64,000 nucleotides of DNA from Schmidtea polychroa (lineage: Eukaryota), in assembly GCA_044892525.1 (NCBI GenBank), contig CM097885.1, forward strand, positions 13,518,001 through 13,582,000. Direction: 5' to 3'. Below the pieces are notes generated by a model. The model was not told where the DNA came from and did no database searches. It worked only from the letters and a program-made list of their open reading frames with translations. Shown one piece after another: positions 12,646-64,000 of the stretch. The translations under genes and the position numbers were made by a program. How positions within the stretch are numbered: position 1 is the first letter of the stretch; every line of letters starts with the position of its first letter.

Positions 12646-12969
12646 ATTAATTCCAGCTTTGAATTGATTGAAAAAGTCCAAAATAGCTTGAGTTGATTGC
12701 AATTGATATTGGAATAATTTCTGAAATTTCTTCATACCAATTGCATTATTACACAATACATCTGCAGTCATTAATTGAACTTCAGTGTGCATATCTTGTT
12801 GATGCATTGCGTCAGGCGATTGCGTCATCTTGTTCATTTGATATTCTTGATAGATTTCGTATGATTGTATTAGAAATTGCTTCCATTGCGCCACTGAGAC
12901 TCTAAAGAAATCCACTCACTTCACTTTATCTACATTGGCATTTAAAAAATTGTCAATTTGACTCTTGTC
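12646..12969 (-). mobile_element. Orphan 5' junction of the tRNA-targeting element: ORF1 N-terminus, tRNA-Arg nt 1-19 (12882-12900) and array upstream spacer
   Basis: Translates to MNKMTQSPDAMHQQDMHTEVQL..., homologous to ORF1 at 63407. Followed on + by tccattgcgccactgagactctaaagaaatcc...actcttgtc, identical to the array unit. Confidence 0.9.
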
Positions 12970-13459: not shown

Positions 13460-13711
13460 AAGTGATTTTTTTGCAATAAACAAATAGGATCCAATGTGAA
13501 ATATTAATGTCAATGTCAGAATTGGTTATAGTTTAAGGAATTGAAACAATTTCTTCTGTAATATTCGAGGAAAGAATATTGACTAGAAAGTATTTGAGGT
13601 ATCCATGCATCGGATTGTCTATATGCCAGTCAATATCGCTGTCCGTAAACCACATTTCAAGATCACGATCATCAATTGTGATGTTAGTAGCTTTTAATGT
13701 GGTCTCTGCAT
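13460..13711 (-). pseudogene. Diverged Ulp1-like protease fragment of the same retroelement family
   Basis: Manual translation ITIDDRDLEMWFTDSDIDW..HIDNPMHGYLKYFLVNILSSNITEEIVSIP*..INISHWILFVYCKK aligns to ORF2 LTIDDFDSEMWFSDNDIDW..HIDNPMHGYIKCF..NSHWILFVYCKK; stop and deletions present. Confidence 0.88.
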
Positions 13712-15762: not shown

Positions 15763-16070
15763 TACAAAAATATTATTTAAATTAACATTCATGATTGCAG
15801 TTAGCAACCATGAATGCTAACAAAGACATCATGTGTTTAATGCGTGATCAGCGCATAAAGACAATGATTAATGACAAAGACAGTGCATGATCAGTGCATG
15901 TCACATAAAGAAACATAATGAAATTAAAATTCCTATAGAAAAAAGATTTAAAATTATCTAAACCTAAAGGATTGGCATTTAATTCCTCCCCAGATAAAAA
16001 TTTATTTAATTTTAAGTATTTATTCTTTGATTCCTTAATTTTAGTTAAAGGAATCAAATTTGGAAACTTA

Positions 16071-16589
16071 TTATAGAGCTGTTTTCGCTCTTTTTTTAGT
16101 TAAAATACGAATATAAGTTTTAAAATCAAATATTTTATTACTTATTTTCGGTTTGGAAATAAAAACTTTAGGATTTAAAGAACTTTTATTATCGTCTGTG
16201 CTCTCCTCAGGTCTCCCCGATTCCCGCAATGACTCCACCAATGCGATGAACGCTGCCTTCTTTAGCTGTCCCCTAATGGACTCGGCTGTTCGACCCTGAC
16301 CGTGAACTTGTGACAATACCTTCGGATCCCGACCATTCACCACTACTTCCCTCACTAGGATCTGAATTTCTTCCTCTAGCCACCTTCTCGTCACCACCCT
16401 TTCACCCCGCTCTTTCTCCAAAAGAGCATCTGTCTTCTCCCTGTGGGCACTCCTCTGGTGCACGCCTCTGCCAAAATTTGTAGCGAAATCCTTCTCACAA
16501 AAATTGCATTTGAACTTCTCAACTTCGGCCGTGAAATCCCGGACCGCACCATTCACCGATAAATTATTATTTATTGTGTTGATTTCCAT
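16071..16589 (-). CDS. Chimeric 172-aa ORF: R2 C2H2+Myb fused in frame to an ORF1 fragment of the tRNA-targeting element (4 copies: +2229, +4458, +6689)
   Basis: ATG at 16589 (MEINT...); junction RPEES(T/I)DD|NKSSLNPKVFISKPKISNK at ~16192; expression unknown. Confidence 0.55.
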   Translation of the reverse strand: MEINTINNNLSVNGAVRDFTAEVEKFKCNFCEKDFATNFGRGVHQRSAHREKTDALLEKERGERVVTRRWLEEEIQILVREVVVNGRDPKVLSQVHGQGRTAESIRGQLKKAAFIALVESLRESGRPEESTDDNKSSLNPKVFISKPKISNKIFDFKTYIRILTKKRAKTAL

Positions 16590-16977
16590 GGTGTATTTAG
16601 GCGACGACGGTTTTGTGGACCGAAGTGCCCGTTGATAGCTTCCCAGAAGCACTTGCCGAGGTGAGACATTCCTCTGCTTAACTTTGTTATCGATCTGTCC
16701 CTGACCGCTCCAGATAGGAGTTGCCTCCTTTTGGCTCTATAGGTTACCCTACAGTTTCCCTAAGCTTCCAGCCGTTCGAAAAGAATACATTTGGTTGTCA
16801 CTCTTGGAGGAGTGGGTAACAGGAGTAACCACGAGAAGGTAGTATTTCTTTTCTTTCACCTCGCGCAGAAGAGATCTTCTGCCAGGGACGCTAGCCTGCT
16901 GCACCTTGGCCATCCTTCACAGGACGGACTGATCAAGGGCATTGGAACCAGATTACCATGACCACGATTAAGAGAGT
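16193..16977 (-). mobile_element. 5' fragment of an R2 retrotransposon (copy 1; others 18422-19206, 20651-21435, 22882-23666)
   Basis: GC-rich block. Starts with ACTCTCTTAA (28S sequence directly 5' of the canonical R2 site), then an HDV-like ribozyme core, then C2H2 finger CNFCEKDFAT..GRGVHQRSAH and Myb-like RWLEEE..GRTAESIRG. Confidence 0.85.
16778..16853 (-). ncRNA. HDV-like ribozyme core of the R2 5' UTR (also 19007-19082, 21236-21311, 23467-23542)
   Basis: Minus strand: P2 GAAAAGAAATAC, P3 ACC, L3 TTCTCGT, P3' GGT, P1' TACTCCT (complementary to 28S GGGAGTA with G-U at +1), P4 GTT..CACTC/GAGTG..AAC, J4/2 CAAAT, P2' GTATTCTTTTC. Folded by eye. Confidence 0.75.
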
Positions 16978-19900
16978 GCAATCAAGCTTGGATGCAGGAA
17001 TGGTTAACGTCGCGTGCAATGTTATGCTCACGACGACTTTAATCACTCTTGCATAATCATAAATAAATATCAAAGACAAAAAATTTGGTTATGCATCTAA
17101 AATATTGAATTTAAGAATCATACTAACAATAACAATAAATAAAAATATTGAATTGAAGAATCATAATAACAATAACATTACATCATAAACAATGATAATA
17201 ATGAAACTAATGATCAAATCCTACTTCCAATTACAAATTCTTCTGTGGACAGAGAAGAATAAAAATTTGGCACTGTTTGAATACCATTGGAAGCTTTTTT
17301 TTCCTTTTGTTTGATACATTTATAATTGTACACATTCATCTTAAAGACCTTATTTATACTAAATTGCGCACATGTTCAACCAATCAAATTTGCATAAACT
17401 AAAAAGTTCATTAAATTAAACTTATAAACAAAATAAAATTTTATCTAATTAAATAAAATTACATAAATAAAATGTTAAGAACAATAAATGATAATCTAAA
17501 ATAATTTATTATTATCACACCACCATCTATTTTTATTATTAAGATTTGTAGAATTATTATTTGTACTATTGTTTGTATAAGTTTTATTATTAACATGGTT
17601 CTTGGCCATAATTCTATTTAGCAACATATTTTTATTCAAAATAAACTGGTTTAGGTGTGCATAGTGTTCGGTGTAAAAAACTGAATTTTTTAATTTCTGG
17701 GCAGTTTCGCATTTAGCGCATATAAAAAAGCGGGTGCCGTAGAATTTACGACCATAGTACTTTTCCAATTATTTATGACATGCCAAGCTATGACCAATCG
17801 TCGACTGACAGTACTTCTTATACAGTTTGCTTGATAAAATATATATATATATAAATTATAGCATCATGTATCATCCATAATCATCTTAAATATTATCATT
17901 ATATTATTATTTAATTCATTTAAAAATTATTGATAAATGAATTAAATATTAAATTAAATTAAAAATTATTATTATTATTATTATTATTTACAAAAATATT
18001 ATTATTTAAATTAACATTCATGATTGCAGTTAGCAACCATGAATGCTAACAAAGACATCATGTGTTTAATGCGTGATCAGCGCATAAAGACAATGATTAA
18101 TGACAAAGACAGTGCATGATCAGTGCATGTCACATAAAGAAACATAATGAAATTAAAATTCCTATAGAAAAAAGATTTAAAATTATCTAAACCTAAAGGA
18201 TTGGCATTTAATTCCTCCCCAGATAAAAATTTATTTAATTTTAAGTATTTATTCTTTGATTCCTTAATTTTAGTTAAAGGAATCAAATTTGGAAACTTAT
18301 TATAGAGCTGTTTTCGCTCTTTTTTTAGTTAAAATACGAATATAAGTTTTAAAATCAAATATTTTATTACTTATTTTCGGTTTGGAAATAAAAACTTTAG
18401 GATTTAAAGAACTTTTATTATCGTCTATGCTCTCCTCAGGTCTCCCCGATTCCCGCAATGACTCCACCAATGCGATGAACGCTGCCTTCTTTAGCTGTCC
18501 CCTAATGGACTCGGCTGTTCGACCCTGACCGTGAACTTGTGACAATACCTTCGGATCCCGACCATTCACCACTACTTCCCTCACTAGGATCTGAATTTCT
18601 TCCTCTAGCCACCTTCTCGTCACCACCCTTTCACCCCGCTCTTTCTCCAAAAGAGCATCTGTCTTCTCCCTGTGGGCACTCCTCTGGTGCACGCCTCTGC
18701 CAATTTTTGTAGCGAAATCCTTCTCACAAAAATTGCATTTGAACTTCTCAACTTCGGCCGTGAAATCCCGGACCGCACCATTCACCGATAAATTATTATT
18801 TATTGTGTTGATTTCCATGGTGTATTTAGGCGACGACGGTTTTGTGGACCGAAGTGCCCGTTGATAGCTTCCCAGAAGCACTTGCCGAGGTGAGACATTC
18901 CTCTGCTTAACTTTGTTATCGATCTGTCCCTGACCGCTCCAGATAGGAGTTGCCTCCTTTTGGCTCTATAGGTTACCCTACAGTTTCCCTAAGCTTCCAG
19001 CCGTTCGAAAAGAATACATTTGGTTGTCACTCTTGGAGGAGTGGGTAACAGGAGTAACCACGAGAAGGTAGTATTTCTTTTCTTTCACCTCGCGCAGAAG
19101 AGATCTTCTGCCAGGGACGCTAGCCTGCTGCACCTTGGCCATCCTTCACAGGACGGACTGATCAAGGGCATTGGAACCAGATTACCATGACCACGATTAA
19201 GAGAGTGCAATCAAGCTTGGATGCAGGAATGGTTAACGTCGCGTGCAATGTTATGCTCACGACGACTTTAATCACTCTTGCATAATCATAAATAAATATC
19301 AAAGACAAAAAATTTGGTTATGCATCTAAAATATTGAATTTAAGAATCATACTAACAATAACAATAAATAAAAATATTGAATTGAAGAATCATAATAACA
19401 ATAACATTACATCATAAACAATGATAATAATGAAACTAATGATCAAATCCTACTTCCAATTACAAATTCTTCTGTGGACAGAGAAGAATAAAAATTTGGC
19501 ACTGTTTGAATACCATTGGAAGCTTTTTTTTCCTTTTGTTTGATACATTTATAATTGTACACATTCATCTTAAAGACCTTATTTATACTAAATTGCGCAC
19601 ATGTTCAACCAATCAAATTTGCATAAACTAAAAAGTTCATTAAATTAAACTTATAAACAAAATAAAATTTTATCTAATTAAATAAAATTACATAAATAAA
19701 ATGTTAAGAACAATAAATGATAATCTAAAATAATTTATTATTATCACACCACCATCTATTTTTATTATTAAGATTTGTAGAATTATTATTTGTACTATTG
19801 TTTGTATAAGTTTTATTATTAACATGGTTCTTGGCCATAATTCTATTTAGCAACATATTTTTATTCAAAATAAACTGGTTTAGGTGTGCATAGTGTTCGG

Positions 19901-22900
19901 TGTAAAAAACTGAATTTTTTAATTTCTGGGCAGTTTCGCATTTAGCGCATATAAAAAAGCGGGTGCCGTAGAATTTACGACCATAGTACTTTTCCAATTA
20001 TTTATGACATGCCAAGCTATGACCAATCGTCGACTGACAGTACTTCTTATACAGTTTGCTTGATAAAATATATATATATATAAATTATAGCATCATGTAT
20101 CATCCATAATCATCTTAAATATTATCATTATATTATTATTTAATTCATTTAAAAATTATTGATAAATGAATTAAATATTAAATTAAATTAAAAATTATTA
20201 TTATTATTATTATTATTTACAAAAATATTATTATTTAAATTAACATTCATGATTGCAGTTAGCAACCATGAATGCTAACAAAGACATCATGTGTTTAATG
20301 CGTGATCAGCGCATAAAGACAATGATTAATGACAAAGACAGTGCATGATCAGTGCATGTCACATAAAGAAACATAATGAAATTAAAATTCCTATAGAAAA
20401 AAGATTTAAAATTATCTAAACCTAAAGGATTGGCATTTAATTCCTCCCCAGATAAAAATTTATTTAATTTTAAGTATTTATTCTTTGATTCCTTAATTTT
20501 AGTTAAAGGAATCAAATTTGGAAACTTATTATAGAGCTGTTTTCGCTCTTTTTTTAGTTAAAATACGAATATAAGTTTTAAAATCAAATATTTTATTACT
20601 TATTTTCGGTTTGGAAATAAAAACTTTAGGATTTAAAGAACTTTTATTATCGTCTATGCTCTCCTCAGGTCTCCCCGATTCCCGCAATGACTCCACCAAT
20701 GCGATGAACGCTGCCTTCTTTAGCTGTCCCCTAATGGACTCGGCTGTTCGACCCTGACCGTGAACTTGTGACAATACCTTCGGATCCCGACCATTCACCA
20801 CTACTTCCCTCACTAGGATCTGAATTTCTTCCTCTAGCCACCTTCTCGTCACCACCCTTTCACCCCGCTCTTTCTCCAAAAGAGCATCTGTCTTCTCCCT
20901 GTGGGCACTCCTCTGGTGCACGCCTCTGCCAATTTTTGTAGCGAAATCCTTCTCACAAAAATTGCATTTGAACTTCTCAACTTCGGCCGTGAAATCCCGG
21001 ACCGCACCATTCACCGATAAATTATTATTTATTGTGTTGATTTCCATGGTGTATTTAGGCGACGACGGTTTTGTGGACCGAAGTGCCCGTTGATAGCTTC
21101 CCAGAAGCACTTGCCGAGGTGAGACATTCCTCTGCTTAACTTTGTTATCGATCTGTCCCTGACCGCTCCAGATAGGAGTTGCCTCCTTTTGGCTCTATAG
21201 GTTACCCTACAGTTTCCCTAAGCTTCCAGCCGTTCGAAAAGAATACATTTGGTTGTCACTCTTGGAGGAGTGGGTAACAGGAGTAACCACGAGAAGGTAG
21301 TATTTCTTTTCTTTCACCTCGCGCAGAAGAGATCTTCTGCCAGGGACGCTAGCCTGCTGCACCTTGGCCATCCTTCACAGGACGGACTGATCAAGGGCAT
21401 TGGAACCAGATTACCATGACCACGATTAAGAGAGTGCAATCAAGCTTGGATGCAGGAATGGTTAACGTCGCGTGTAATGTTATGCTCACGACGACTTTAA
21501 TCACTCTTGCATAATCATAAATAAATATCAAAGACAAAAAATTTGGTTATGCATCTAAAATATTGAATTTAAGAATCATACTAACAATAACAATAAATAA
21601 AAATATTGAATTGAAGAATCATAATAACAATAACATTACATCATAAACAATGATAATAATGAAACTAATGATCAAATCCTACTTCCAATTACAAATTCTT
21701 CTGTGGACAGAGAAGAATAAAAATTTGGCACTGTTTGAATACCATTGGAAGCTTTTTTTTCCTTTTGTTTGATACATTTATAATTGTACACATTCATCTT
21801 AAAGACCTTATTTATACTAAATTGCGCACATGTTCAACCAATCAAATTTGCATAAACTAAAAAGTTCATTAAATTAAACTTATAAACAAAATAAAATTTT
21901 ATCTAATTAAATAAAATTACATAAATAAAATGTTAAGAACAATAAATGATAATCTAAAATAATTTATTATTATCACACCACCATCTATTTTTATTATTAA
22001 GATTTGTAGAATTATTATTTGTACTATTGTTTGTATAAGTTTTATTATTAACATGGTTCTTGGCCATAATTCTATTTAGCAACATATTTTTATTCAAAAT
22101 AAACTGGTTTAGGTGTGCATAGTGTTCGGTGTAAAAAACTGAATTTTTTAATTTCTGGGCAGTTTCGCATTTAGCGCATATAAAAAAGCGGGTGCCGTAG
22201 AATTTACGACCATAGTACTTTTCCAATTATTTATGACATGCCAAGCTATGACCAATCGTCGACTGACAGTACTTCTTATACAGTTTGCTTGATAAAATAT
22301 ATATATATATATAAATTATAGCATCATGTATCATCCATAATCATCTTAAATATTATCATTATATTATTATTTAATTCATTTAAAAATTATTGATAAATGA
22401 ATTAAATATTAAATTAAATTAAAAATTATTATTATTATTATTATTATTTACAAAAATATTATTATTTAAATTAACATTCATGATTGCAGTTAGCAACCAT
22501 GAATGCTAACAAAGACATCATGTGTTTAATGCGTGATCAGCGCATAAAGACAATGATTAATGACAAAGACAGTGCATGATCAGTGCATGTCTCATAAAGA
22601 AACATAATGAAATTAAAATTCCTATAGAAAAAAGATTTAAAATTATCTAAACCTAAAGGATTGGCATTTAATTCCTCCCCAGATAAAAATTTATTTAATT
22701 TTAAGTATTTATTCTTTGATTCCTTAATTTTAGTTAAAGGAATCAAATTTGGAAACTTATTATAGAGCTGTTTTCGCTCTTTTTTTAGTTAAAATACGAA
22801 TATAAGTTTTAAAATCAAATATTTTATTACTTATTTTCGGTTTGGAAATAAAAACTTTAGGATTTAAAGAACTTTTATTATCGTCTATGCTCTCCTCAGG

Positions 22901-24840
22901 TCTCCCCGATTCCCGCAATGACTCCACCAATGCGATGAACGCTGCCTTCTTTAGCTGTCCCCTAATGGACTCGGCTGTTCGACCCTGACCGTGAACTTGT
23001 GACAATACCTTCGGATCCCGACCATTCACCACTACTTCCCTCACTAGGATCTGAATTTCTTCCTCTAGCCACCTTCTCGTCACCACCCTTTCACCCCGCT
23101 CTTTCTCCAAAAGAGCATCTGTCTTCTCCCTGTGGGCACTCCTCTGGTGCACGCCTCTGCCAATTTTTGTAGCGAAATCCTTCTCACAAAAATTGCATTT
23201 GAACTTCTCAACTTCGGCCGTGAAATCCCGGACCGCACCATTCACCGATAAATTATTATTTATTGTGTTGATTTCCATGGTGTATTTAGGCGACGACGGT
23301 TTTGTGGACCGAAGTGCCCGTTGATAGCTTCCCAGAAGCACTTGCCGAGGTGAGACATTCCTCTGCTTAACTTTGTTATCGATCTGTCCCTGACCGCTCC
23401 AGATAGGAGTTGCCTCCTTTTGGCTCTATAGGTTACCCTACAGTTTCCCTAAGCTTCCAGCCGTTCGAAAAGAATACATTTGGTTGTCACTCTTGGAGGA
23501 GTGGGTAACAGGAGTAACCACGAGAAGGTAGTATTTCTTTTCTTTCACCTCGCGCAGAAGAGATCTTCTGCCAGGGACGCTAGCCTGCTGCACCTTGGCC
23601 ATCCTTCACAGGACGGACTGATCAAGGGCATTGGAACCAGATTACCATGACCACGATTAAGAGAGTGCAATCAAGCTTGGATGCAGGAATGGTTAACGTC
23701 GCGTGTAATGTTATGCTCACGACGACTTTAATCACTCTTGCATAATCATAAATAAATATCAAAGACAAAAAATTTGGTTATGCATCTAAAATATTGAATT
23801 TAAGAATCATACTAACAATAACAATAAATAAAAATATTGAATTGAAGAATCATAATAACAATAACATTACATCATAAACAATGATAATAATGAAACTAAT
23901 GATCAAATCCTACTTCCAATTACAAATTCTTCTGTGGACAGAGAAGAATAAAAATTTGGCACTGTTTGAATACCATTGGAAGCTTTTTTTTCCTTTTGTT
24001 TGATACATTTATAATTGTACACATTCATCTTAAAGACCTTATTTATACTAAATTGCGCACATGTTCAACCAATCAAATTTGCATAAACTAAAAAGTTCAT
24101 TAAATTAAACTTATAAACAAAATAAAATTTTATCTAATTAAATAAAATTACATAAATAAAATGTTAAGAACAATAAATGATAATCTAAAATAATTTATTA
24201 TTATCACACCACCATCTATTTTTATTATTAAGATTTGTAGAATTATTATTTGTACTATTGTTTGTATAAGTTTTATTATTAACATGGTTCTTGGCCATAA
24301 TTCTATTTAGCAACATATTTTTATTCAAAATAAACTGGTTTAGGTGTGCATAGTGTTCGGTGTAAAAAACTGAATTTTTTAATTTCTGGGCAGTTTCGCA
24401 TTTAGCGCATATAAAAAAGCGGGTGCCGTAGAATTTACGACCATAGTACTTTTCCAATTATTTATGACATGCCAAGCTATGACCAATCGTCGACTGACAG
24501 TACTTCTTATACAGTTTGCTTGATAAAATATATATATATATATAAATTATAGCATCATGTATCATCCATAATCATCTTAAATATTATCATTATATTATTA
24601 TTTAATTCATTTAAAAATTATTGATAAATGAATTAAATATTAAATTAAATTAAAAATTATTATTATTATTATTATTATTTACAAAAATATTATTATTTAA
24701 ATTAACATTCATGATTGCAGTTAGCAACCATGAATGCTAACAAAGACATCATGTGTTTAATGCGTGATCAGCGCATAAAGACAATGATTAATGACAAAGA
24801 CAGTGCATGATCAGTGCATGTCTCATAAAGAAACATAATG

Positions 24841-25689: not shown

Positions 25690-25896
25690 TCCATTGCGCC
25701 ACTGAGACTCTAAAGAAATCCACTCACTTCACTTTATCTACATTGGCATTTAAAAAATTGTCAATTTGACTCTTGTCAAGTCAAAACAAATTTCTCATGC
25801 TTTTGATATTCTTGATAGATTTCGTATGATTGCATTAGAAATTGCTTTGACGATTTTTCGTTGTTGAAAACAAAATTTTGTCAAAGACAATTCTGT

Positions 25897-29122: not shown

Positions 29123-30363
29123 TACTTTTCCAATTATTTATGACATGCCAAGCTATGACCAATCGTCGACTGACAGTACTTCTTATACAGTTTGCTTGAT
29201 AAAATATATATATATATAAATTATAGCATCATGTATCATCCATAATCATCTTAAATATTATCATTATATTATTATTTAATTCATTTAAAAATTATTGATA
29301 AATGAATTAAATATTAAATTAAATTAAAAATTATTATTATTATTATTATTATTTACAAAAATATTATTATTTAAATTAACATTCATGATTGCAGTTAGCA
29401 ACCATGAATGCTAACAAAGACATCATGTGTTTAATGCGTGATCAGCGCATAAAGACAATGATTAATGACAAAGACAGTGCATGATCAGTGCATGTCTCAT
29501 AAAGAAACATAATGAAATTAAAATTCCTATAGAAAAAAGATTTAAAATTATCTAAACCTAAAGGATTGGCATTTAATTCCTCCCCAGATAAAAATTTATT
29601 TAATTTTAAGTATTTATTCTTTGATTCCTTAATTTTAGTTAAAGGAATCAAATTTGGAAACTTATTATAGAGCTGTTTTCGCTCTTTTTTTTAGTTAAAA
29701 TACGAATATAAGTTTTAAAATCAAATATTTTATTACTTATTTTCGGTTTGGAAATAAAAACTTTAGGATTTACAGAACTTTTATTATTGTTTATTGAAAT
29801 TTTAAAATTTTCGAAATTTTGACTATCGATATTAAAATCGTTATTAACATTAATATTGAGAATTTTATCACAAGTCGAATTATTAACATTACAATTATCT
29901 ATATTTACAATTTCATTAGCTTTAGAATTTTTATTTAAAGAAAATTTATCAAAATTATTTAAATTATTAGAGAAATTTTCAAAATTTAAAGATAAACATT
30001 CTAACCGTTCGAACATCTTTGAAAATAAAATCTCCATTGAATCCAAACGTTTCTCGAAATTCTGAAACTGATTGTCTGGCTTGTTTGGAAGGACATTGTT
30101 CATCGAATGATTCTCCATGGAAGTCATATTAATTCCAGCTTTGAATTGATCGAAAAAGTCCAAAATAGCTTGAGTTGATTGCAATTGATATTGGAATAAT
30201 TTCTGAAATTTCTTCATACCAATTGCATTATTACACAATACATCTGCAGTCATTAATTGAACTTCAGTGTGCATATCTTGTTGATGCATTGCGTCAGGCG
30301 ATGGCGTCATCTTGTTCATTTGATATTCTTGATAGATTTCATATGATTGCTTTAGAAATTGCT
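29123..30363 (-). mobile_element. 1.24-kb cassette (AT-rich flank, hairpin module, ORF1 5' part) replacing most of one tRNA
   Basis: Copy of ~24447-25689; left junction aaaatgcat|tacttttcc, right junction at tRNA nt 19. Confidence 0.92.
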
Positions 30364-30577
30364 TCCATTGCGCCACTGAGACTCTAAAGAAATCCACTCA
30401 CTTCACTTTATCTACATTGGCATTTAAAAAATTGTCAATTTGACTCTTGTCAAGTCAAAACAAATTTCTCATGCTTTTGATATTCTTGATAGATTTCGTA
30501 TGATTGCATTAGAAATTGCTTTGACGATTTTTCGTTGTTGAAAACAAAATTTTGTCAAAGACAATTCTGTAAAAATG

Positions 30578-55500: not shown

Positions 55501-55692
55501 AACAAATTTCTCATGCTTTTGATATTCTTGATAGATTTCGTATGATTGCATTAGAAATTGCTTTGACGATTTTTCGTTGTTGAAAACAAAATTTTGTCAA
55601 AGACAATTCTGTAAAAATGCATCTCAGGTGGGACTCGAACCCACAACCTCCGGATTAGAAGTCCGACGCGCTATCCATTGCGCCACTGAGAC
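46508..55692 (-). tRNA. tRNA-Arg-TCT: Sub-array 3: 35 complete tRNA-Arg(UCU) genes
   Basis: First 46508, last 55620; difference is 34 x 268. Confidence 0.95.
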
Positions 55693-55887
55693 TCTAAAGA
55701 AATCCACTCACTTCACTTTATCTACATTGGCATTTAAAAAATTGTCAATTTGACTCTTGTCAAGTCAAAACAAATTTCTCATGCTTTTGATATTCTTGAT
55801 AGATTTCGTATGATTGCATTAGAAATTGCTTTGACGATTTTTCGTTGTTGAAAACAAAATTTTGTCAAAGACAATTCTGTAAAAATG

Positions 55888-55941
55888 CATCTCAGGTGGG
55901 ACTCGAACCCACAACCTCCGGATTAGAAGTCCGACGCGCTA
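55888..55941 (-). pseudogene. 3' part (nt 20-73) of the interrupted tRNA-Arg
   Basis: Array sequence stops at ...ccgacgcgcta|ataaaacattt. Confidence 0.95.
55903..55941. repeat. 39-bp target duplication, left copy (right copy 63414-63452)
   Basis: tcgaacccacaacctccggattagaagtccgacgcgcta on both sides of the element. Confidence 0.92.
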
Positions 55942-56288
55942 ATAAAACATTTATTAAATATAACAAATTTGAATATTGTTTTTAACAGATAATCAGCTCT
56001 ACATGGAGTTGTCCATAAGCAAATATTCACATATTTCTTCATCTGCTGGAATCTCTGATCAATTTCATCGGAATTTATTATCCGGCATTGCGACTTGTCT
56101 TTGGTAGATTGAAGTTCTAAATTAATAAATTTGCTCTGTCGCAGAATATTTATCTCCAAAAAATGAAAGTTTCTCTAATAATTAGTTTATTTTTTTAATG
56201 AAATATAAATTTAGTTTGTTTAAATAATCAAATTAATAAAAGTTTTAAATTTAATTATTTATTTAAGTTGAAAACCAATTTATTTTAA

Positions 56289-59200
56289 TTATGCAAAATT
56301 TGGAAGCTTTCCATTACAATGAAAATACCAAATCTTTGCCGAGTGTGCAATGTTACTTATTGCGCATTCCTTCATCAAACCTTTGATTTTTGTTTGTGGA
56401 ATTCCCATTTTTAATAAAAGATCAGAAGTTTTTGGTTCAATTGACCCCAAGGAACCCATGATGCATGTAAACAATTCAACCTTGTAATCAGGTTTAACTG
56501 TTTGTATATCTGATTTTAATTTATCATATTTTTCCAAATTTAATTTGTCGACTCGCTCAAAATTAATTACAGAATCAATTGGACATTTCATGTCTACTAG
56601 CAGAATCGTCTTTTTCTCGGTATTTGTTATTAAAAGATCAACCCGTTCGTTGGAATTTGGTACAAGAGAACATTTGTGATCAGTGACAACCAAGAGTTCA
56701 GGATTTTTAAGCGCATCTTTAATTTTTTCTAAGCAAGCATTATGTCGATTAGTTGCTAATGATTGATTGATTCTACAAGTTTGGAGTACATGTAAAATTG
56801 TCTCATCTTCAGATTTACATCTACGACAAAGGCGGTCTTCGCCAGTTTTATGTGGCTTAGCAAATGTAGAGAGTGTATTTGTTCGAGCTCGATGAATGAA
56901 ATTCCATTCAAAGTCTGTCAAGTCACTACGGAAAATTAGTTTGTTGACAAATGGACAAAGTTTGAGAGCAGACACAATTAGATTACTTTGATTACTTTTC
57001 TCCCACTTTTCGAGATACGAATCTTGAAGAGCAGAATGGAGAATCTTTGATAATGCTTTTCTTAATTTTGGTAATAATATGCGAGTGCCAGTTAATGAAG
57101 TAGTGAGCCGAATCGAAGGATTTTGTTTGAAAGTTTCGAACGAAATTTTAATGTTGTGAACTCGATTGAAATATGCAATTGATGCACGCAATCGGTAGAA
57201 GCGAGTTTTACTACCACTATGATTTAATTTGCTTTCTTTTCCATTAACCCATTCCAAGCTTTGACTGAGAGTTGGTTCTTTGATTCCGAGTCTTGGACTT
57301 GTCACAGACAAGAGTGAAAAAGTGTTTATCTTTTTTGAGTAGTCGCAAGTTGATGTTAGTAAACGGAAAAAGTAAACAATCGACTGTGTGTGATACTCAT
57401 CAAGAAGGTCAATACAGCCAGCTCCACCATTTTCAGTGGCATTATAGAAATAACTTATTTCAGAGTGGTTTGGTAAATTTAATATTTTCCTCAAATGGCT
57501 CCTCAATTGGCTAGTACTATTTACATTTATCCTTGAGTTACTACTAGGAGATGTTAATGAACTAGTTTTAATTTCCCTAGTTCTAAATGGGAAAATAAGG
57601 CGCGAATGCAGGAAGATTTTATAAGCTTTGAGCTTTTGCCAACCATAGAGATCAGAGTTAGCAATCTTTTTAGTATCTTCAATGACTTGGCTGACGATTT
57701 CATAGGGACTTTGATCATTATTATCACCTATTGGCACTCCTAAGTATTGGTAAAATTCATTATCAGCAAGTTTTTTAATTAAATCATTGTTGACAACGAT
57801 TTCACTGACCGTTTCTAGTTTTGGGTATTGTATATATGCACATTTTTCAGGGCGATATTCAAATCCAATATTATTGGCAGTTTTTACAGCTACGCCAATT
57901 AGCTTTTGGAGGTCAGTTGAGCTAGTTGCAATAAGTGCAATGTCATCAGCATAAGCTAACACTTGTACTTGAGAAGAGCCTATCATAAAAGGTGTAATGT
58001 TAGATGCGGTAATAGCTTCAAGAACCGGATTAATAGCTATTGCAAACAGAATCATAGAGATCGGGCAACCTTGTTTTACACCTTTCTTAATTGGAATATT
58101 CGGTGTCTGCATTTTGTTGCAGCGATAAAACGAGCTCGTATCTGTATAAAGTAATTTCAGGATATTCACAAAGTTTTCACCAACGTTCATATGTCTTAAC
58201 AATGTCCACATGTATTCGTGTGGAACACTTCCGAAAGCGTCTTTGATGTCAAGCCAGGCTATTGCTAAAGGTGAAGATTTACTATATTTTGAATGCTCGA
58301 CAATCGCAGAGAGAATTGAGTTGTGTTCAATACATCCTTCGTATTCTGAACCACCCTTTTGGCCAATATGCAGCAGATTATTTTCTTTAATCCATAAACT
58401 AAGACGAGTTGCAAGAACTGAAGCGAAAACTTTGTAAATCACTGACAGTAATGCGATTGGTCGCCATGAAGATACTTTATGGTATTGGTCATTTTTATCA
58501 GGTTTCGGAATTAATATTGTTTTAAAAGTTTTCCAACTTGTAGGGATAGATTTCAGTTGAATGATTTTGTTGAAAAGTAACGCTAGAAGCTTACAATCTG
58601 GATCGAGTAACAGAAGATCTTTATAATATACATTATCAAGTCCGGGCGTAGAATTATCAGCTTCCTGAAGATTGGAAAGAATTTCCATTGGCGTAGTAAT
58701 TTCTAATTCAAGTAAGCTTTTCGAGATTTTACTAAAGTTTAAAACGTTGTTCCAACTTCCAGGTAAAGTATCTTGATGAGTGAAAGTGTTTATAATTTCC
58801 TGAAATGGTGGTTCAGCTTTTTCGCTCTGATTACCTAAAATTCTGTTTACAGTCTTTTTCATATTTTTCAGAAATTCAGTAGAATTGTTGAATTTTTTAG
58901 GTTTATTGTGATTTTTCCCAAGATATGGCTCTCGAAATTCTTGATCCTGCAAATTTTCTAGATGAGGAATATTTGCCAGAATAGTAGAGATAATTTCATC
59001 AACATTAGAGTTAGACAATGTAGTTAAAAGCTCATCAATTCTATCTTTGCGTTGCTTCAAAGTTAGTTTCAAAGAATTAGCAATTTTCAATTTTCCACGT
59101 CTCTCAATTTTGACAATGTCATTATTATCAACTATTGGAACTAGAGAGTTGATTATTTCAGAAATTTCAGTCAAGTTAATATTTTCAAGAGATTTATCTT

Positions 59201-60890
59201 GAGTGTAGTTTCTGATAAATGCACAAATTAATATTTTGCTAAATAAACCAGAACCTCTTATATCATGTGGGCAGTGGCCAATTGTCATTGAACGCCCTTT
59301 ACTTTGTCTTAGCTCATTAATTTTGAGCACAATGTTATAAGAGAAAGCTTTAGAAAACACATTCAAATCATTGGTCACTGGACTAAGAAAATAATGTTCG
59401 TCTGTGTCGTAATCAATTACCAACAGCAATTCATGGGCCTTGGGAGGAGAAATTATTGCAAAGATTACATTTGCCTTCATCATGTCCTCAATGTTTAAAA
59501 AATCATTTAAGTATTGAGTACAATCATCTGAAATTGCAGCAGACAAAGTTCTGTTTAGGAGAATATAATTATTCGATAATTTTAGGTTCATAAAATATTC
59601 ATTAATAATTTTATCAGTTATTTTACCGTTGATTAAATTAAAGTTGGGAGAAATTTCAATGCACGACTGAGATTTTAATTCACCAAGTGTATCATATACT
59701 TTATCATAATCCAAGAGTCTTTCAAAGACAAATTTCTCAAAAAACACAATAAAGGAACTTGCAAAGTATTGATTGTCATTAGAGTGAAAGGAAGGATGCG
59801 AGATTCGATGATCAGCTATGAATTTAATTTTTCGATTAAGACAAAATTGATTGAGATAATCGGTCATCTTTTCACCAATTTCAATCAATCTCTCATCAAT
59901 ATTTCTATAATTAAAATCAAAAATGTAGCTACGGTTAAGCTTACTGGAGTATATGAAAAGACACCAATCTTTAAATTTTGGAATGACACCAAGAATGTGA
60001 TCGATTCCTTTAAATTGTTTAAAGGTGACATTGTCGGCTATAAAAGAGTCATTTTGCGCAATTAAATTGGATGTTAAATTGGCAGATAAAACCAAGATTT
60101 TAGAATTCTCTTTATAATATTTATCAATTAGTGATGACACACATGGCGCTTGGTTGTTGAGAACTTTAGTAATGTTTAAATTATTATTTGTAGTTTTAGA
60201 TTTAGCGATAGCCTTCTTGAAATTGATTGTTGCCATATCTAAATTGTTTTTAGCACCTCCAATTAAATTTGGTGAACCATTAACCAAGTGTTTCTGATAT
60301 CGATGAACATTTCGTCTTATTTCTTCAATGAATCCATCAGGAAAGCTGTTCCAATCTTTACTGATTATCACTGCATAAGCGCAAGTGAATGGACCACAGT
60401 CAAAATTGTTATTTTGATATTGAAGATTTGTATGCGGATGATATGACACTGCTATCTTGAGGTTGAAAAATCTATTTAGTGCAATATTCATTTTAAGAGC
60501 CATTTGTTTGTTGATTAGATTATTTCTGTTATTAAAAATTGGATCAATAAAGTAAGATGAATTCGATTTCTTACAGTATACAAAAAGAATCCAATGGGAA
60601 TTGTTTATATTAAGTGGACAAAAAATCATTTCAGCATTGGTAATTGACTGTGGAATTGCAACAATTTCTTCTTGAATATTCGAGCATAGAATATTAACGA
60701 TGAAACACTTGATGTATCCATGCATTGGATTGTCGATATGGTTTTCAAGATACCAATCAATATCATTATCAGAGAACCACATTTCACTATCAAAATCGTC
60801 AATTGTTAAATAGTAATTATCTATTGTGCTCTCTGCATCAGTCTCATTAAAGGGAACGGCAGACGCTTGAGCTGATGCAGGCACACATCT
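56289..60890 (-). CDS. ORF2: Ulp1/C48-like protease(s), reverse transcriptase, CCHC knuckle, restriction-like endonuclease
   Basis: Ulp1: NSHWIL, FIDP, QNNNFDCGPF. RT: STPGLD, WRPIAL, WLDIKDAFGSV, GVKQGCPIS, LAYADDI, YLG. Knuckle: CRRCKSEDETILHVLQTC. RLE: RHN, RVDLLI..VDMK..KY. No ATG at the start of the open frame. Confidence 0.95.
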   Translation of the reverse strand, partial: RCVPASAQASAVPFNETDAESTIDNYYLTIDDFDSEMWFSDNDIDWYLENHIDNPMHGYIKCFIVNILCSNIQEEIVAIPQSITNAEMIFCPLNINNSHWILFVYCKKSNSSYFIDPIFNNRNNLINKQMALKMNIALNRFFNLKIAVSYHPHTNLQYQNNNFDCGPFTCAYAVIISKDWNSFPDGFIEEIRRNVHRYQKHLVNGSPNLIGGAKNNLDMATINFKKAIAKSKTTNNNLNITKVLNNQAPCVSSLIDKYYKENSKILVLSANLTSNLIAQNDSFIADNVTFKQFKGIDHILGVIPKFKDWCLFIYSSKLNRSYIFDFNYRNIDERLIEIGEKMTDYLNQFCLNRKIKFIADHRISHPSFHSNDNQYFASSFIVFFEKFVFERLLDYDKVYDTLGELKSQSCIEISPNFNLINGKITDKIINEYFMNLKLSNNYILLNRTLSAAISDDCTQYLNDFLNIEDMMKANVIFAIISPPKAHELLLVIDYDTDEHYFLSPVTNDLNVFSKAFSYNIVLKINELRQSKGRSMTIGHCPHDIRGSGLFSKILICAFIRNYTQDKSLENINLTEISEIINSLVPIVDNNDIVKIERRGKLKIANSLKLTLKQRKDRIDELLTTLSNSNVDEIISTILANIPHLENLQDQEFREPYLGKNHNKPKKFNNSTEFLKNMKKTVNRILGNQSEKAEPPFQEIINTFTHQDTLPGSWNNVLNFSKISKSLLELEITTPMEILSNLQEADNSTPGLDNVYYKDLLLLDPDCKLLALLFNKIIQLKSIPTSWKTFKTILIPKPDKNDQYHKVSSWRPIALLSVIYKVFASVLATRLSLWIKENNLLHIGQKGGSEYEGCIEHNSILSAIVEHSKYSKSSPLAIAWLDIKDAFGSVPHEYMWTLLRHMNVGENFVNILKLLYTDTSSFYRCNKMQTPNIPIKKGVKQGCPISMILFAIAINPVLEAITASNITPFMIGSSQVQVLAYADDIALIATSSTDLQKLIGVAVKTANNIGFEYRPEKCAYIQYPKLETVSEIVVNNDLIKKLADNEFYQYLGVPIGDNNDQSPYEIVSQVIEDTKKIANSDLYGWQKLKAYKIFLHSRLIFPFRTREIKTSSLTSPSSNSRINVNSTSQLRSHLRKILNLPNHSEISYFYNATENGGAGCIDLLDEYHTQSIVYFFRLLTSTCDYSKKINTFSLLSVTSPRLGIKEPTLSQSLEWVNGKESKLNHSGSKTRFYRLRASIAYFNRVHNIKISFETFKQNPSIRLTTSLTGTRILLPKLRKALSKILHSALQDSYLEKWEKSNQSNLIVSALKLCPFVNKLIFRSDLTDFEWNFIHRARTNTLSTFAKPHKTGEDRLCRRCKSEDETILHVLQTCRINQSLATNRHNACLEKIKDALKNPELLVVTDHKCSLVPNSNERVDLLITNTEKKTILLVDMKCPIDSVINFERVDKLNLEKYDKLKSDIQTVKPDYKVELFTCIMGSLGSIEPKTSDLLLKMGIPQTKIKGLMKECAISNIAHSAKIWYFHCNGKLPNFA

Positions 60891-63407
60891 TCATTTGGAT
60901 TTCGATGATTGTTTTTTTAGTGTCGTAGTTCGCGATTTTGTACCAGATTTCTTTGTGAGAGGTTCTTCAATAGTCTCTGTAGGGATTGGATTGACTTGAC
61001 TAGAATTTGATTGATCAGTGGAAATGGCGTCAAATAAACAGTTTTCACAAATGTTAACATTCATTCCTTCTCTGACCAAAATGAATTTTTCAAGGATGTT
61101 ATTACATTTCATACAGTTGATTTCTTCAATGACAACGATAGGGTCCATAACATTACTGTTGGTAGTTTGATTGTCAATATCGCAATTGGTTTCGGCTGTT
61201 TCTGTTACATTGATTTGGTTAACAATTAATTTTAATTTAGTTATTATTAGAGAAATTTGCTGGCACATCTCTGGAGTGCAATATTTATTGCTTGTTTCAA
61301 ACAGACGGAATTTCTGGTTTTTATCCTTAAATTTCTTTGTATCTCTCAACAAAAAATAAATAAATCGCTTCGCTTTAACGCCATATGTGTCATCTATTAA
61401 TTTCTCATTATTAATTGTTTCCATTAATTTAGTAAGGATATTATTGTTTTGAAATTTATTGGGAAAGGTTTCGTCAACAAGATCAAGAAAACTATTAACA
61501 CATGCTATTGTTTCTGGAGAAATTACGTTATGGATCTTTTTAATTTCCCCAGAAATTTTCCATTGTTTTAATTTCAAGAGTTTTTCTTGACAATTTGTAT
61601 AATAAAAAGACGAGTTTGGAATCCTTTGAATAATTTCAGAAGCCCAACATTCAAAATTTTCAAGTGAGAGAAGAGAAAGATCTTCAAGCGAACAGAGTGA
61701 ATTTAATAAACAACAATTTCGAATATAGTTCACAACATAATCAGAATAAGTTTGATTTTGAGAAAATTTTAAGGATCCAACCAAACCCAAGTAATTTAGA
61801 TAAAATACTATCTCAACAATTTTAAAGTGACAATCTGTTTTAGTCAAAATTGATTTTAATTCAACATCATCTTTTGCCATGTTTATTAGATCAAATAACC
61901 CAAGATTAAACATTATGTCAGGAAATGAATTGGGTTCTTTGTGTTTAATATCAGATTGAAAGAATTTACCCCCTTCAAAAAAGATATCTTCAGGAAACAC
62001 ATTATCGATTTTTAAAGATTCAATCAACTTAATAATTGAAGATGATTTTGAGTCAGGATTCTCAACAAACATAATCTCTTTAAGAGAAGGATAAGATGAG
62101 TAGAGAGTTTTCATCTGGGTACGAGATAGTTCGGAAAATGTTGATGATGTGAAATCGTTATTTATCTTGGATGTTATATTTGGGTTTGTCAAATCTAACA
62201 ATATAAACTCACCCTTTTGATATTTAATTTTTGATTTAACCAGATAATTTGGGAGCTTTTCTTGTTTAATCAAAGAAGAAATGATTTTATTAATTTTATT
62301 TTCTCTATGATTACAGTCTGTAATAGAAACTGTTTCAGAAAGCTCAGGCGAAAGGTTAAATAAAAATCTTTTAATTGCAGTTGGTGCTGCTATATAATTA
62401 GAAAAATTAGGAAAAGTCTTTACAATATTATGTTCAGACAGAAAAAGTTTCTTTTTATAAGAGACAGGTTTAACGGTTGAGTTTTCATTTAAAAAACTAT
62501 CTATATAAAACTCAACACAGAAATTAAAATTCCTATAAAAAAAACATTTAAAATTATCTAAGCCTATAGGATTGGCATTAAATTCCTCCCCAGATAAAAA
62601 TTTATTTAATTTTAAATATTTATTCTTTGATTCCTTAATTTTAGTTAAAGGAATCAAAGTTGGAAACTTATCATAGAGCTGTTTTCGCTCTTTTTTTGTT
62701 AAAATACGAATAAAAGTCTTAAAATCAAAACTTTTATTACTTATTTTCGGTTTGGAAACCAACACTTTAGGATTGTCAAAACGTGTATTATTATTTATTG
62801 AAATTTTAATATTATCGAAATTTTGACTATCCTTATTTAAATCGTTATTCACATTAATATTAAGATTTTTATCAGAAAGCGAATTATTAACATTACAAGA
62901 ATTTTTATTTAAAGGAAATTTATCAAACTCTATATTAAAATCCTTATTGACATTTGATGAATTATTAAAATTACAATTATCTAAATTTGAAATTTCATTA
63001 ATTTTATTATCTTTAAAATGGAAAAAATCTTTATTTAAAGAAAATTTATCAAAATTATTTAAATTATTAAAGAAACTCTCAAAATTTAAAGATAAACACT
63101 CTAACCTTTCAAGCATCTTTGAGAATGAAATCTCCATTGAATCCAAACGTTTCTCGAAATTCTGAAACTGATTTTCCGGCTTGTTTGGAAGGACATTGAT
63201 CATTGAATTCTCCATGGAAGGCATATTAAATCCAGCTTTGAATTGACTGAAGAAATCCAAAAGAGCCTGATTTGATTGCAATTGAAATTGGAATAATTTC
63301 TGAAGTTTCTTCATATCAATTGCATAATTACATAATCCTTCTGCAGTCGTTGATTGAACTCCAGTGTGCATATCTTGTTGATGCATTGCATAAGGCGATT
63401 GCATCAT
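60891..63407 (-). CDS. ORF1, 838 aa from first ATG; Asn/Lys-rich with a C-terminal Cx2C-x18-Cx2C motif; function unknown
   Basis: Long open frame in AT-rich DNA, homologous fragments elsewhere in the window, in frame with ORF2. Confidence 0.85.
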   Translation of the reverse strand: MMQSPYAMHQQDMHTGVQSTTAEGLCNYAIDMKKLQKLFQFQLQSNQALLDFFSQFKAGFNMPSMENSMINVLPNKPENQFQNFEKRLDSMEISFSKMLERLECLSLNFESFFNNLNNFDKFSLNKDFFHFKDNKINEISNLDNCNFNNSSNVNKDFNIEFDKFPLNKNSCNVNNSLSDKNLNINVNNDLNKDSQNFDNIKISINNNTRFDNPKVLVSKPKISNKSFDFKTFIRILTKKERKQLYDKFPTLIPLTKIKESKNKYLKLNKFLSGEEFNANPIGLDNFKCFFYRNFNFCVEFYIDSFLNENSTVKPVSYKKKLFLSEHNIVKTFPNFSNYIAAPTAIKRFLFNLSPELSETVSITDCNHRENKINKIISSLIKQEKLPNYLVKSKIKYQKGEFILLDLTNPNITSKINNDFTSSTFSELSRTQMKTLYSSYPSLKEIMFVENPDSKSSSIIKLIESLKIDNVFPEDIFFEGGKFFQSDIKHKEPNSFPDIMFNLGLFDLINMAKDDVELKSILTKTDCHFKIVEIVFYLNYLGLVGSLKFSQNQTYSDYVVNYIRNCCLLNSLCSLEDLSLLSLENFECWASEIIQRIPNSSFYYTNCQEKLLKLKQWKISGEIKKIHNVISPETIACVNSFLDLVDETFPNKFQNNNILTKLMETINNEKLIDDTYGVKAKRFIYFLLRDTKKFKDKNQKFRLFETSNKYCTPEMCQQISLIITKLKLIVNQINVTETAETNCDIDNQTTNSNVMDPIVVIEEINCMKCNNILEKFILVREGMNVNICENCLFDAISTDQSNSSQVNPIPTETIEEPLTKKSGTKSRTTTLKKQSSKSK

Positions 63408-63413
63408 CTTGTT

Positions 63414-63471
63414 TCGAACCCACAACCTCCGGATTAGAAGTCCGACGCGCTATCCATTGCGCCACTGAGAC
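63414..63471 (-). pseudogene. 5' part (nt 1-58) of the interrupted tRNA-Arg
   Basis: Minus strand GTCTCAG...GGGTTCGA|AACAAGATGATG. Confidence 0.95.
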
Positions 63472-63666
63472 TCTAAAGAAATCCACTCACTTCACTTTAT
63501 CTACATTGGCATTTAAAAAATTGTCAATTTGACTCTTGTCAAGTCAAAACAAATTTCTCATGCTTTTGATATTCTTGATAGATTTCGTATGATTGCATTA
63601 GAAATTGCTTTGACGATTTTTCGTTGTTGAAAACAAAATTTTGTCAAAGACAATTCTGTAAAAATG

Positions 63667-63739
63667 CATCTCAGGTGGGACTCGAACCCACAACCTCCGG
63701 ATTAGAAGTCCGACGCGCTATCCATTGCGCCACTGAGAC
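63667..63739 (-). tRNA. tRNA-Arg-TCT: tRNA-Arg(UCU), complete copy (next copy from 63935 is cut by the window end)
   Basis: Identical to array consensus. Confidence 0.95.
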
Positions 63740-64000
63740 TCTAAAGAAATCCACTCACTTCACTTTATCTACATTGGCATTTAAAAAATTGTCAATTTGA
63801 CTCTTGTCAAGTCAAAACAAATTTCTCATGCTTTTGATATTCTTGATAGATTTCGTATGATTGCATTAGAAATTGCTTTGACGATTTTTCGTTGTTGAAA
63901 ACAAAATTTTGTCAAAGACAATTCTGTAAAAATGCATCTCAGGTGGGACTCGAACCCACAACCTCCGGATTAGAAGTCCGACGCGCTATCCATTGCGCCA

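Follow-up and report, generated by a model that had tools for sequence, protein, structure and literature searches.

The 64,000-nucleotide stretch of DNA considered here, from Schmidtea polychroa (GenBank assembly GCA_044892525.1, contig CM097885.1, forward-strand positions 13,518,001 to 13,582,000), carries a tandem array of tRNA-Arg(UCU) genes and, inside one of them, a retrotransposon without long terminal repeats (non-LTR). We refer to the whole stretch as the window and use its coordinates throughout. ARAGORN identified 102 tRNA-Arg(tct) genes in the 64-kb window, every one on the minus strand, and the units are spaced 268 bp apart throughout the uninterrupted stretches of the array. The retrotransposon insertion leaves a gap in the array at 55693-63665. 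Array phase is preserved on both sides of the gap, i.e., the distance from 63739 to 63471 is 268 bp, as is that from the virtual tRNA start at 55960 to 55692.

The retrotransposon copy (55941-63413, 7,473 bp) lies on the minus strand, as do all its features listed below, and has the same sense as the tRNAs. Its 5' end abuts an upstream partial tRNA-Arg(UCU) consisting of nt 1-58 (63414-63471; Rfam partial tRNA at 63410-63471, 29.2 bits), and its 3' end is followed by a downstream partial tRNA-Arg(UCU) that extends from A21 to the 3' end (55887-55940; Rfam partial tRNA at 55888-55948, 38.4 bits). With a caret marking the point of joining, the 3' junction is ...TTTTATT^AGCGCGTCGG, which corresponds to tRNA T20^A21, and the 5' junction, after tRNA nt 58, is ...GGGTTCGA^AACAAGATGATG, six bases ahead of the ATG of the first open reading frame (ORF1). 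Since the copy joins nt 58 at one end and A21 at the other, tRNA nt 21-58 are present on both sides, as a 38-bp duplication in which 55903-55940 repeats 63414-63451. The copy is short by approximately 17 nt relative to the 5' end of the family (TGACTAACGGAGAA...). At the other end, a 348-nt 3' untranslated region (UTR; 55941-56288) terminates in ...AATAAATGTTTTATT without poly(A). An Rfam E-value scan of 55600-64000 found no ribozyme, hepatitis delta virus (HDV)-like or other, at the 5' end of the element; apart from tRNAs, the scan matched only an unrelated plastid 5' UTR family, twice and weakly (E 0.0057), in each case antisense to an intact tRNA.

The coding region consists of stop-to-stop frames of 852 and 1533 codons in one reading frame, with a single TGA (60891-60893) between them. 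ORF1 (60894-63407; 838 codons from the first ATG) contains a Cys-x2-Cys...Cys-x2-Cys motif near its C-terminus. It had no significant match in Pfam and no usable match in the Atlas, and a search limited to proteins of near length returned no homologue at E <= 0.001 among 7,998 candidates scored. ORF2 (56289-60890; 1533 codons and a TAA stop) was recognized from the ORF listing, Pfam and alignment to solved structures. Its N-terminal part is a Ulp1/C48 cysteine-protease domain (residues 21-179; 60354-60830), which was detected as Pfam PF02902 Peptidase_C48 at residues 82-179 (E 1.5e-9) and by alignment to yeast Ulp1 (1euv, E 8.7e-7), with the SHW, D and Q..DCG motifs retained. Residues ~231-690 (58821-60200) contain two segments that gave matches in pairwise, two-sequence BLASTP searches (E 1e-5 and 7e-5), and we tentatively regard them as two additional, degenerate Ulp1-like repeats without the catalytic Cys. 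The reverse transcriptase (RT) follows at residues 794-1053 (57732-58511; Pfam RVT_1, E 1.8e-29). The best solved-structure matches to ORF2 are R2 proteins (9nl2, E 6.7e-53), followed by LINE-1 ORF2p, and the second stretch aligned to R2 spans both a CCHC motif, CRRC...H...C (residues 1355-1372; 56775-56828), and the core of a restriction-like endonuclease (RLE), RVD...VDMK (residues 1416-1437; 56580-56645).

The residues expected to matter for these activities are conserved. Protease residues H99, D116, Q159 and C165, CCHC residues C1355, C1358, H1367 and C1372, and endonuclease residues D1418, D1433 and K1435 are each invariant in 11/11 aligned relatives, and the RT motif YADD is likewise invariant among them. 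The closest database proteins are 40-61% identical, and 10 of the 12 top relatives carry PF02902 together with RT. Pfam revealed no apurinic/apyrimidinic (AP) endonuclease (PF03372) in ORF1 or ORF2 and no zinc-finger or Myb DNA-binding domain in ORF2. The initial annotation of this region had proposed an RLE non-LTR element with Ulp1, RT and CCHC domains, and this is borne out by Pfam and the R2 alignment. The array of approximately 100 tRNA-Arg(UCU) genes that it described is the array of 102, the shared orientation of element and tRNAs is evident from their common strand, and its placement of the 3' end at nt 19/20, give or take one nucleotide, agrees with the measured T20^A21. Its range of 55888-63471 does contain the element and also takes in the two partial tRNAs outside it.

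The TGA between the two ORFs was present in 10/10 copies of the element that were read. It is followed, after 3 nt, by a GC-rich hairpin (60825-60887), a candidate stimulator of readthrough or reinitiation, and TGA and hairpin are identical in all ten copies. The predicted fold has a free energy of -34 kcal/mol (z -2.39; 3 of 200 shuffles fold equally well). The first Met of ORF2, residue 37, lies within the Ulp1 alignment. Among the called proteins of relatives, 9/10 start with MPA (MHA in one of the nine), which aligns to a V(GTG)PA two codons past the stop. ORF2 may be made either by UGA readthrough or by reinitiation at GUG. A variant genetic code for TGA was considered and set aside: this TGA is the sole in-frame stop in ~2,370 codons and ORF2 ends with TAA, so that genome-wide recoding is unnecessary.

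We searched the 781-Mb assembly containing the window for further copies. With the 3' UTR as query, 40 of 162 candidates were scored, all of them 94-100% identical, and in the loci that were fetched the element end was followed by tRNA sequence from A21 in 30/30 cases (19 elongator Met (eMet), 7 Asn, 2 Arg-UCU, 1 Ile-AAU and 1 initiator Met (iMet)). A genome-wide search for the terminal 20 nt of the element gave 46 matches, as compared to none for the reversed control; 44 of these are element ends and two are chance matches without element homology. A pattern that reads the anticodon gave 79 matches (26 for its reversed control), comprising 42 tRNA-flanked junctions and 37 unrelated AT-rich sequences. 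All 42 of the junctions fell at A21 (26 elongator Met, 9 Asn, 3 Arg-UCU, 2 initiator Met and 2 Ile), which excludes chance. An extra copy, with an element end 2 nt shorter, resides in tRNA-Cys-GCA. In the Ile and Cys targets the flank is AGAGC rather than AGCGC; the AG thus belongs to the target, which places the site 5' of A21. The target of the family is therefore a D-arm site common to at least six isotypes and not a single tRNA species. Insertion at one defined site is combined with targets that are multicopy RNA genes, i.e., tandem arrays with units of 241 bp (eMet), 254 bp (Asn), 268 bp (Arg-UCU), 322 bp (Ile) and 454 bp (iMet); in the tRNA-Cys context just one further gene was seen, downstream. 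Large single-tRNA arrays occur at C2:87.77-88.13 Mb, C3:22.9-23.1 Mb, C1:79.35-79.44 Mb and C2:38.48-38.54 Mb, and on contigs C179, C87, C192 and C361.

Nine further copies (Arg_b, Arg_c, Arg_d, Cys, eMet, Asn, iMet, Ile and C4) were fetched whole, and their 5' junctions differ. Within tRNA sequence, the full-length Arg_d copy is joined after nt 38, the Cys copy at approximately nt 37, and Arg_c, which is truncated at element position 1950, at nt 59-64 with a 5-nt microhomology. Junctions of the eMet and Asn copies lie in array spacer, 31 bp and 54 bp before the next tRNA, respectively, and that of the iMet copy lies inside the iMet array spacer. The Ile copy is joined in an upstream flank that is unmapped relative to the Ile array unit, the C4 copy in an upstream flank of unidentified sequence with no duplication seen, and Arg_b, truncated at element position 193, in non-array sequence. 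On its upstream side, Arg_b (L067, C1:13621000-13630000) is flanked by a short-period repeat with many ATGACCTTGA-like units. The copies thus represent nine or more distinct 5' junctions, i.e., independent insertion events, and the Arg array alone has four different ones. Junctions inside tRNA yield target duplications of 15-44 bp. The full-length Arg_d, C4, eMet and Asn copies share the start bases (AA)TGACTAACGGAG; such identical starts point to an RNA with a defined 5' end, relative to which the window copy lacks the first ~17 nt.

The sequence immediately preceding the element was also informative. Here, the iMet, Ile and Cys copies have 50, 19 and 18 nt, respectively, that are identical to the Asn-array spacer, whereas the Arg_d, C4 and eMet copies share just 3-5 nt with it. 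The carried stretch is native to all uninterrupted Asn units examined (5/5 in locus L011 and 2/2 in locus L042), and Asn-array copies have the internal variant that matches the iMet, Ile and Cys copies at 5/5 loci. These matches are most simply explained if some transcripts from Asn-array copies start in the upstream spacer and were then reverse-transcribed into three other arrays. At the level of sequence, the spacer tag is direct evidence of movement via RNA, with Asn-array copies as its apparent source. We infer that co-transcribed spacer guides 5' joining upon re-entry into the Asn array, which would explain the uniform junction found there.

The family appears young. Over its 7,473 bp, the window copy shares 98.2-99.8% identity with full-length copies from six arrays, which are spread over four contigs of chromosome size. 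All 8 full-length copies have both ORFs open, and the two truncated copies retain an open ORF2. Selection was assessed in the five copies whose length is exactly 7,473 bp (indels of 1-2 bp excluded Arg_d, Ile and Cys), among which 134 columns are variable. In ORF2, variation was seen at 47 of 953 synonymous and 28 of 3,646 non-synonymous sites, which corresponds to a crude per-site ratio of non-synonymous to synonymous variation (pN/pS) of 0.16; for ORF1 the values are 20 of 483 and 35 of 2,037, with a pN/pS of 0.41. The low ORF2 ratio indicates that the lineage was selected for a working ORF2 while it spread. Diagnostic variants near the 5' end (CCTTATG/CCTGACG) and just before the TGA (AATCC/AGACC) occur in mixed combinations, e.g., the Cys copy has CCTGACG near the 5' end together with AATCC before the TGA, which suggests recombination or template switching between subfamilies.

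The element is very probably a young and likely active R2/NeSL-type RLE non-LTR retrotransposon that inserts into tRNA genes, in tRNA orientation, by target-primed reverse transcription. The sequence data show its anatomy, the constant 3' junction, the multiple independent 5' junctions, spacer transduction, copy identity, open frames and selection, and we infer the nick itself, direct recognition of DNA, the site of transcription start and the mode of ORF2 translation. In the proposed mechanism, the endonuclease would nick the tRNA template strand opposite T20^A21, at the boundary of the D-loop and D-stem beside the A box, and the freed 3'-OH would prime copying of element RNA from its ...UUUUAUU end. 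The sequence read by the enzyme would be a short D-arm motif common to many tRNAs, roughly GC(G/T)CA(A/G)T..GG(N)^AG(C/A)G, and the family would thereby colonize the tandem arrays of six or more tRNA isotypes, in which insertions may be tolerated. Joining at the 5' end is proposed to be variable, either 15-44 bp downstream of the nick within the tRNA, giving target duplications, or in array spacer, and often at microhomologies of 3-7 nt. Some source transcripts would begin upstream, in Asn-array spacer, such that a piece of the spacer travels to new sites. For ORF2, translation would either read through the in-frame UGA or reinitiate at the GUG located two codons on, and the Ulp1 protease probably processes the ORF2 product. 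Transcription of the whole element by RNA polymerase III (Pol III) from the upstream partial tRNA was also considered and set aside, given a TTTT run within the first ~150 nt of ORF1.

Several observations weigh against this interpretation. The 5' junction is uniform within an array (10/10 eMet loci and 16/16 Asn loci), and inverted copy pairs recur at a fixed 1.2-kb spacing in the eMet region. Uniform in-array junctions and recurring pairs imply that much of the copy number may be due to array or segmental duplication and not to transposition. Moreover, a spacer junction in a tandem array is compatible with both a deletion and a long duplication, and the second-strand cut is then not fixed. 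The hairpin between the ORFs, being invariant in ten copies, offers no evidence from covariation, and its z-score is modest. Finally, three element ends (L063, L064 and L065) abut sequence that Rfam does not call tRNA; all three flanks begin with AGC. One of these ends is that of the full-length C4 copy (L065), whose flank belongs to a dispersed repeat with 1,105 candidates in the genome, of which all 40 that were scored are 99-100% identical. Two uninterrupted paralogues of this repeat (L076, C2:112625300-112625600, and L077, C3:10085260-10085560) read ...TGGCGCAGTGGG...CAAATAGAT^AGCGGTTCAAATCC...TTTTTTTT and contain A-box-like and B-box-like motifs and a T8 run. In favor of the interpretation, the site AATAGAT^AGCGG resembles the Arg target AATGGAT^AGCGC. 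ARAGORN does not call the repeat a tRNA, and Rfam finds no tRNA in the interrupted copy. The repeat looks like a tRNA-like Pol III-type sequence, seemingly a tRNA-derived unit similar to short interspersed elements, and only one insertion of the element was seen in it. As a separate observation, the eMet region extends over ~360 kb and holds copies in both orientations, with recurring 1.2-kb tail-to-tail pairs indicative of large inverted segmental duplications.

The initial annotation viewed the family as specific for tRNA-Arg(UCU), with this array as its haven. The window copy, three more young copies and an old cassette (described below) do reside in the Arg(UCU) array. Yet only 3/42 junctions are in Arg(UCU), the remaining ones being in eMet, Asn, iMet and Ile, with one more copy in Cys, and such specificity is thereby refuted. 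The broader part of that proposal, an element specific for a D-arm position and living in tRNA arrays, stands with the 42/42 junctions at A21. The check for constant 3' flanks that it recommended, when run genome-wide, gave a constant A21 position with flanks of several isotypes and three flanks that are non-tRNA by Rfam. Its suggestion of recent activity agrees with copy identity, the open frames and ORF2 pN/pS. It is very improbable that there was no recent transposition and that a few old insertions were multiplied by unequal crossing-over or segmental duplication. The identical 5' junctions within the eMet and Asn arrays and the regular inverted pairs favor this possibility, but it is contradicted for the family overall by the near-identity of copies from six unrelated arrays, located on four contigs of chromosome size, by four different 5' junctions inside the Arg array, by Asn spacer carried into the iMet, Ile and Cys arrays, and by purifying selection on ORF2. 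It is partly true for copy number within one array.

A further alternative, which we consider unlikely though less so than the previous two, is that the element is tethered by components of the Pol III machinery (TFIIIB, or TFIIIC bound to the A and B boxes) and cuts at a fixed distance without reading the D-arm. Six isotypes with differing D-stems (GCGC/AGCGC versus GCTC/AGAGC) are hit at one structural position, the sole characterized off-target repeat has A-box-like and B-box-like motifs and a T-run terminator, and ORF2 lacks a zinc-finger or Myb domain detectable by Pfam, all of which fits tethering. However, single-nucleotide precision in 42/42 junctions is typical of sequence-reading RLE elements, every flank, even at the three ends where Rfam sees no tRNA, starts with AG(C/A), and the tRNA-like repeat, despite >1,000 candidate copies, has one insertion. 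To our knowledge, Pol III-tethered elements insert outside the gene. Within the preferred interpretation of sequence-directed, target-primed insertion, the individual proposals may be joined into a single scheme: an enzyme with generic D-arm/A-box recognition, a 'pan-tRNA' writer acting with single-nucleotide precision on at least six isotypes; propagation that depends on spacer-started transcripts, which guide 5' joining upon re-entry into their own array, accounting for its uniform junctions, and leave a tag in foreign arrays; hairpin-assisted readthrough or restart at stop-GUG; and processing by a live Ulp1 protease. That all of these would hold together is possible but doubtful.

The Arg array also retains older, diverged copies. 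An old rearranged cassette (29128-30382, minus strand) begins at a tRNA nt-19 junction at 30364, and matching cassettes occur at 25690 and 46294. Its order is tRNA nt 1-19, 45 nt resembling Arg spacer, and a diverged 5' part of ORF1 (to approximately element position 952; 68% protein identity to the ORF1 of the element), followed by ~390 bp of unrelated sequence and a rejoining near the tRNA 3' end. A fourth instance of the old 5' junction (12648-12900, minus strand) has tRNA nt 1-19, a spacer piece and the element 5' end, at 12882. At 12882, 25690, 30364 and 46294, the copies start directly after tRNA nt 19, as had been pointed out initially in support of a fixed site. The common junction and the same 45 nt in all four copies show that they go back to one old insertion, later multiplied within the array, and are a single event instead of independent evidence. 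This insertion is nevertheless informative, as its 5' junction falls at the nick site itself.

Other repeats adjoin the tRNA array. At 15920-23425 (minus strand) there are at least four copies of a ~2.23-kb repeat with 221-codon frames at 16071-16736, 18300-18965, 20529-21194 and 22760-23425, each repeat holding a 273-bp piece that is 92% identical to element positions 681-952. The longest period accepted by Tandem Repeats Finder, 500, is below the length of this repeat. A Myb match of the 221-codon frame (E 6.7e-4) fell under the Pfam cut-off, and only a 40-residue stretch is common to this frame and ORF1; we do not consider it evidence for a domain of the element. At the edge of the array, a fragment at 13467-13711 (minus strand) matches element positions 2634-2905, in the Ulp1-coding part of ORF2, at ~70% identity and is located upstream of ORF1-like fragments, i.e., out of order, and this region is a mosaic of old element pieces.

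These data offer an unusually clean record of a site-specific element, with dozens of intact, near-identical copies and one nick site over six isotypes, with several independent 5' junctions, and with a spacer tag indicating that insertions in three other arrays came from Asn-array copies. For the host, they mean that large tandem tRNA arrays bear a standing load of dead units. R2 enzymes are already in development for gene writing into rDNA, and a relative that reads tRNA genes would represent a second class of multicopy safe harbor. D-arm sequences are conserved across animals, so the enzyme, if it acts as proposed, could serve as a tool for insertion into tRNA-gene safe harbors.

The closest described families are from planarians. 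Kojima and Jurka (2015, PMC4640811) described a planarian R5/LIN lineage of the NeSL clade, in which LIN15_SM of Schmidtea mediterranea targets tRNA-Arg and LIN25_SM targets tRNA-Glu, and also NeSL-1_TV, specific for tRNA-Pro; the initial caution that tRNA-targeting families of the NeSL group might already be catalogued was thus justified. According to their S6 Fig, LIN15_SM is found in tRNA-Arg-CCG, -CCT, -TCG and -TCT. The tRNA-Arg-TCT printed there and its first 16 trailer bases equal the window tRNA, which in itself suggests a planarian close to Schmidtea. As described in that paper, LIN15_SM shares with the present family an RLE element inside a planarian tRNA, in tRNA orientation, at the boundary of the D-loop and D-stem. 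One printed 5' boundary is near nt 64, with a duplication of ~41 bp, as compared to 38 bp for the window copy. The two differ in their 3' boundaries, which are ...tttttaaa^GCGTC (C23^G24) for LIN15_SM and ...TTTTATT^AGCGCGTC (T20^A21), 3 nt upstream, for our element. They also differ in range: LIN15_SM tolerates four Arg isoacceptors and is reported for Arg alone, whereas Arg, eMet, iMet, Asn, Ile and Cys are hit here. The 31-nt LIN15_SM boundary motif has no match in the S. polychroa genome with up to two mismatches. Its printed 26-nt 3' end aligns best at the very 3' terminus of our element among 7,443 positions tried, but 125 of 2000 shuffles score equally, and homology of the two 3' ends is only suggested. 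This comparison covers the printed boundaries, the 26-nt 3' end and the published description.

Other NeSL-clade elements show similar features. An Ulp1-like protease upstream of RT is present in NeSL and Utopia-1_TSP (though not in all members of the clade), and NeSL-1 of C. elegans, Utopia-1_TSP and NeSL-1_TV of Trichomonas also target multicopy small-RNA genes, NeSL-1_TV inside a tRNA gene. Their targets, the spliced leader, U2 and the T-arm of tRNA-Pro, respectively, differ from the tRNA D-arm used here. These three are described with one ORF, in contrast to the separate 838-codon ORF1 before an in-frame stop and the three Ulp1-like repeats of the present element. Its Ulp1 domain upstream of the RT and its multicopy RNA-gene target make the element a candidate member of the NeSL clade.

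More broadly, it has the architecture of the RLE non-LTR group: a non-LTR RT, a C-terminal CCHC motif followed by a PD-(D/E)xK endonuclease, and no N-terminal AP endonuclease. With R2 it shares the order of RT, CCHC and RLE, site specificity within a tandem RNA gene, variable 5' junctions and evidence of transcripts that start in upstream host sequence. It is distinguished from R2 by its tRNA rather than 28S target, by having no zinc-finger/Myb detected at the N-terminus of ORF2 and no HDV-like ribozyme found, and by the presence of an Ulp1 domain, ORF1 and 15-44 bp target duplications. R2 insertion changes its target by a few bp. The retrotransposons Ty3, TRE5-A and DGLT-A, like our element, use tRNA genes as landmarks for safe integration. 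They integrate up- or downstream through contacts with TFIIIB/TFIIIC and leave the gene intact. Pol III-tethered elements are characterized by insertion outside the gene, at a set distance, and by an integrase or AP endonuclease, whereas the present element inserts inside the gene, at A21, uses an RLE and destroys the gene.

Dada DNA transposons are also described as residing inside multicopy small-RNA genes (tRNA, U1 and U6), a safe haven, and, unlike the element, use a DDE transposase and no RNA intermediate (PMC3706591, PMC8869645). A 2018 review of Pol III-gene targeting (PMC5911963) contains no mention of NeSL, restriction-like or Dada. A full-text literature search revealed no further description of RLE elements that reside in tRNA genes, nor any of multi-isotype tRNA targeting, and an identical family may exist in Repbase or Dfam. 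As judged from the published descriptions of LIN15_SM and its relatives, this kind of element is already in print, and the one reported here appears to be a close cousin. What it adds is a range of several isotypes, an Asn-spacer tag by which source copies can be traced, and the ORF1-stop-hairpin-ORF2 layout with three Ulp1-like repeats; the earlier account is thereby extended from elements specific for tRNA-Arg to a D-arm specificity that includes multiple isotypes.

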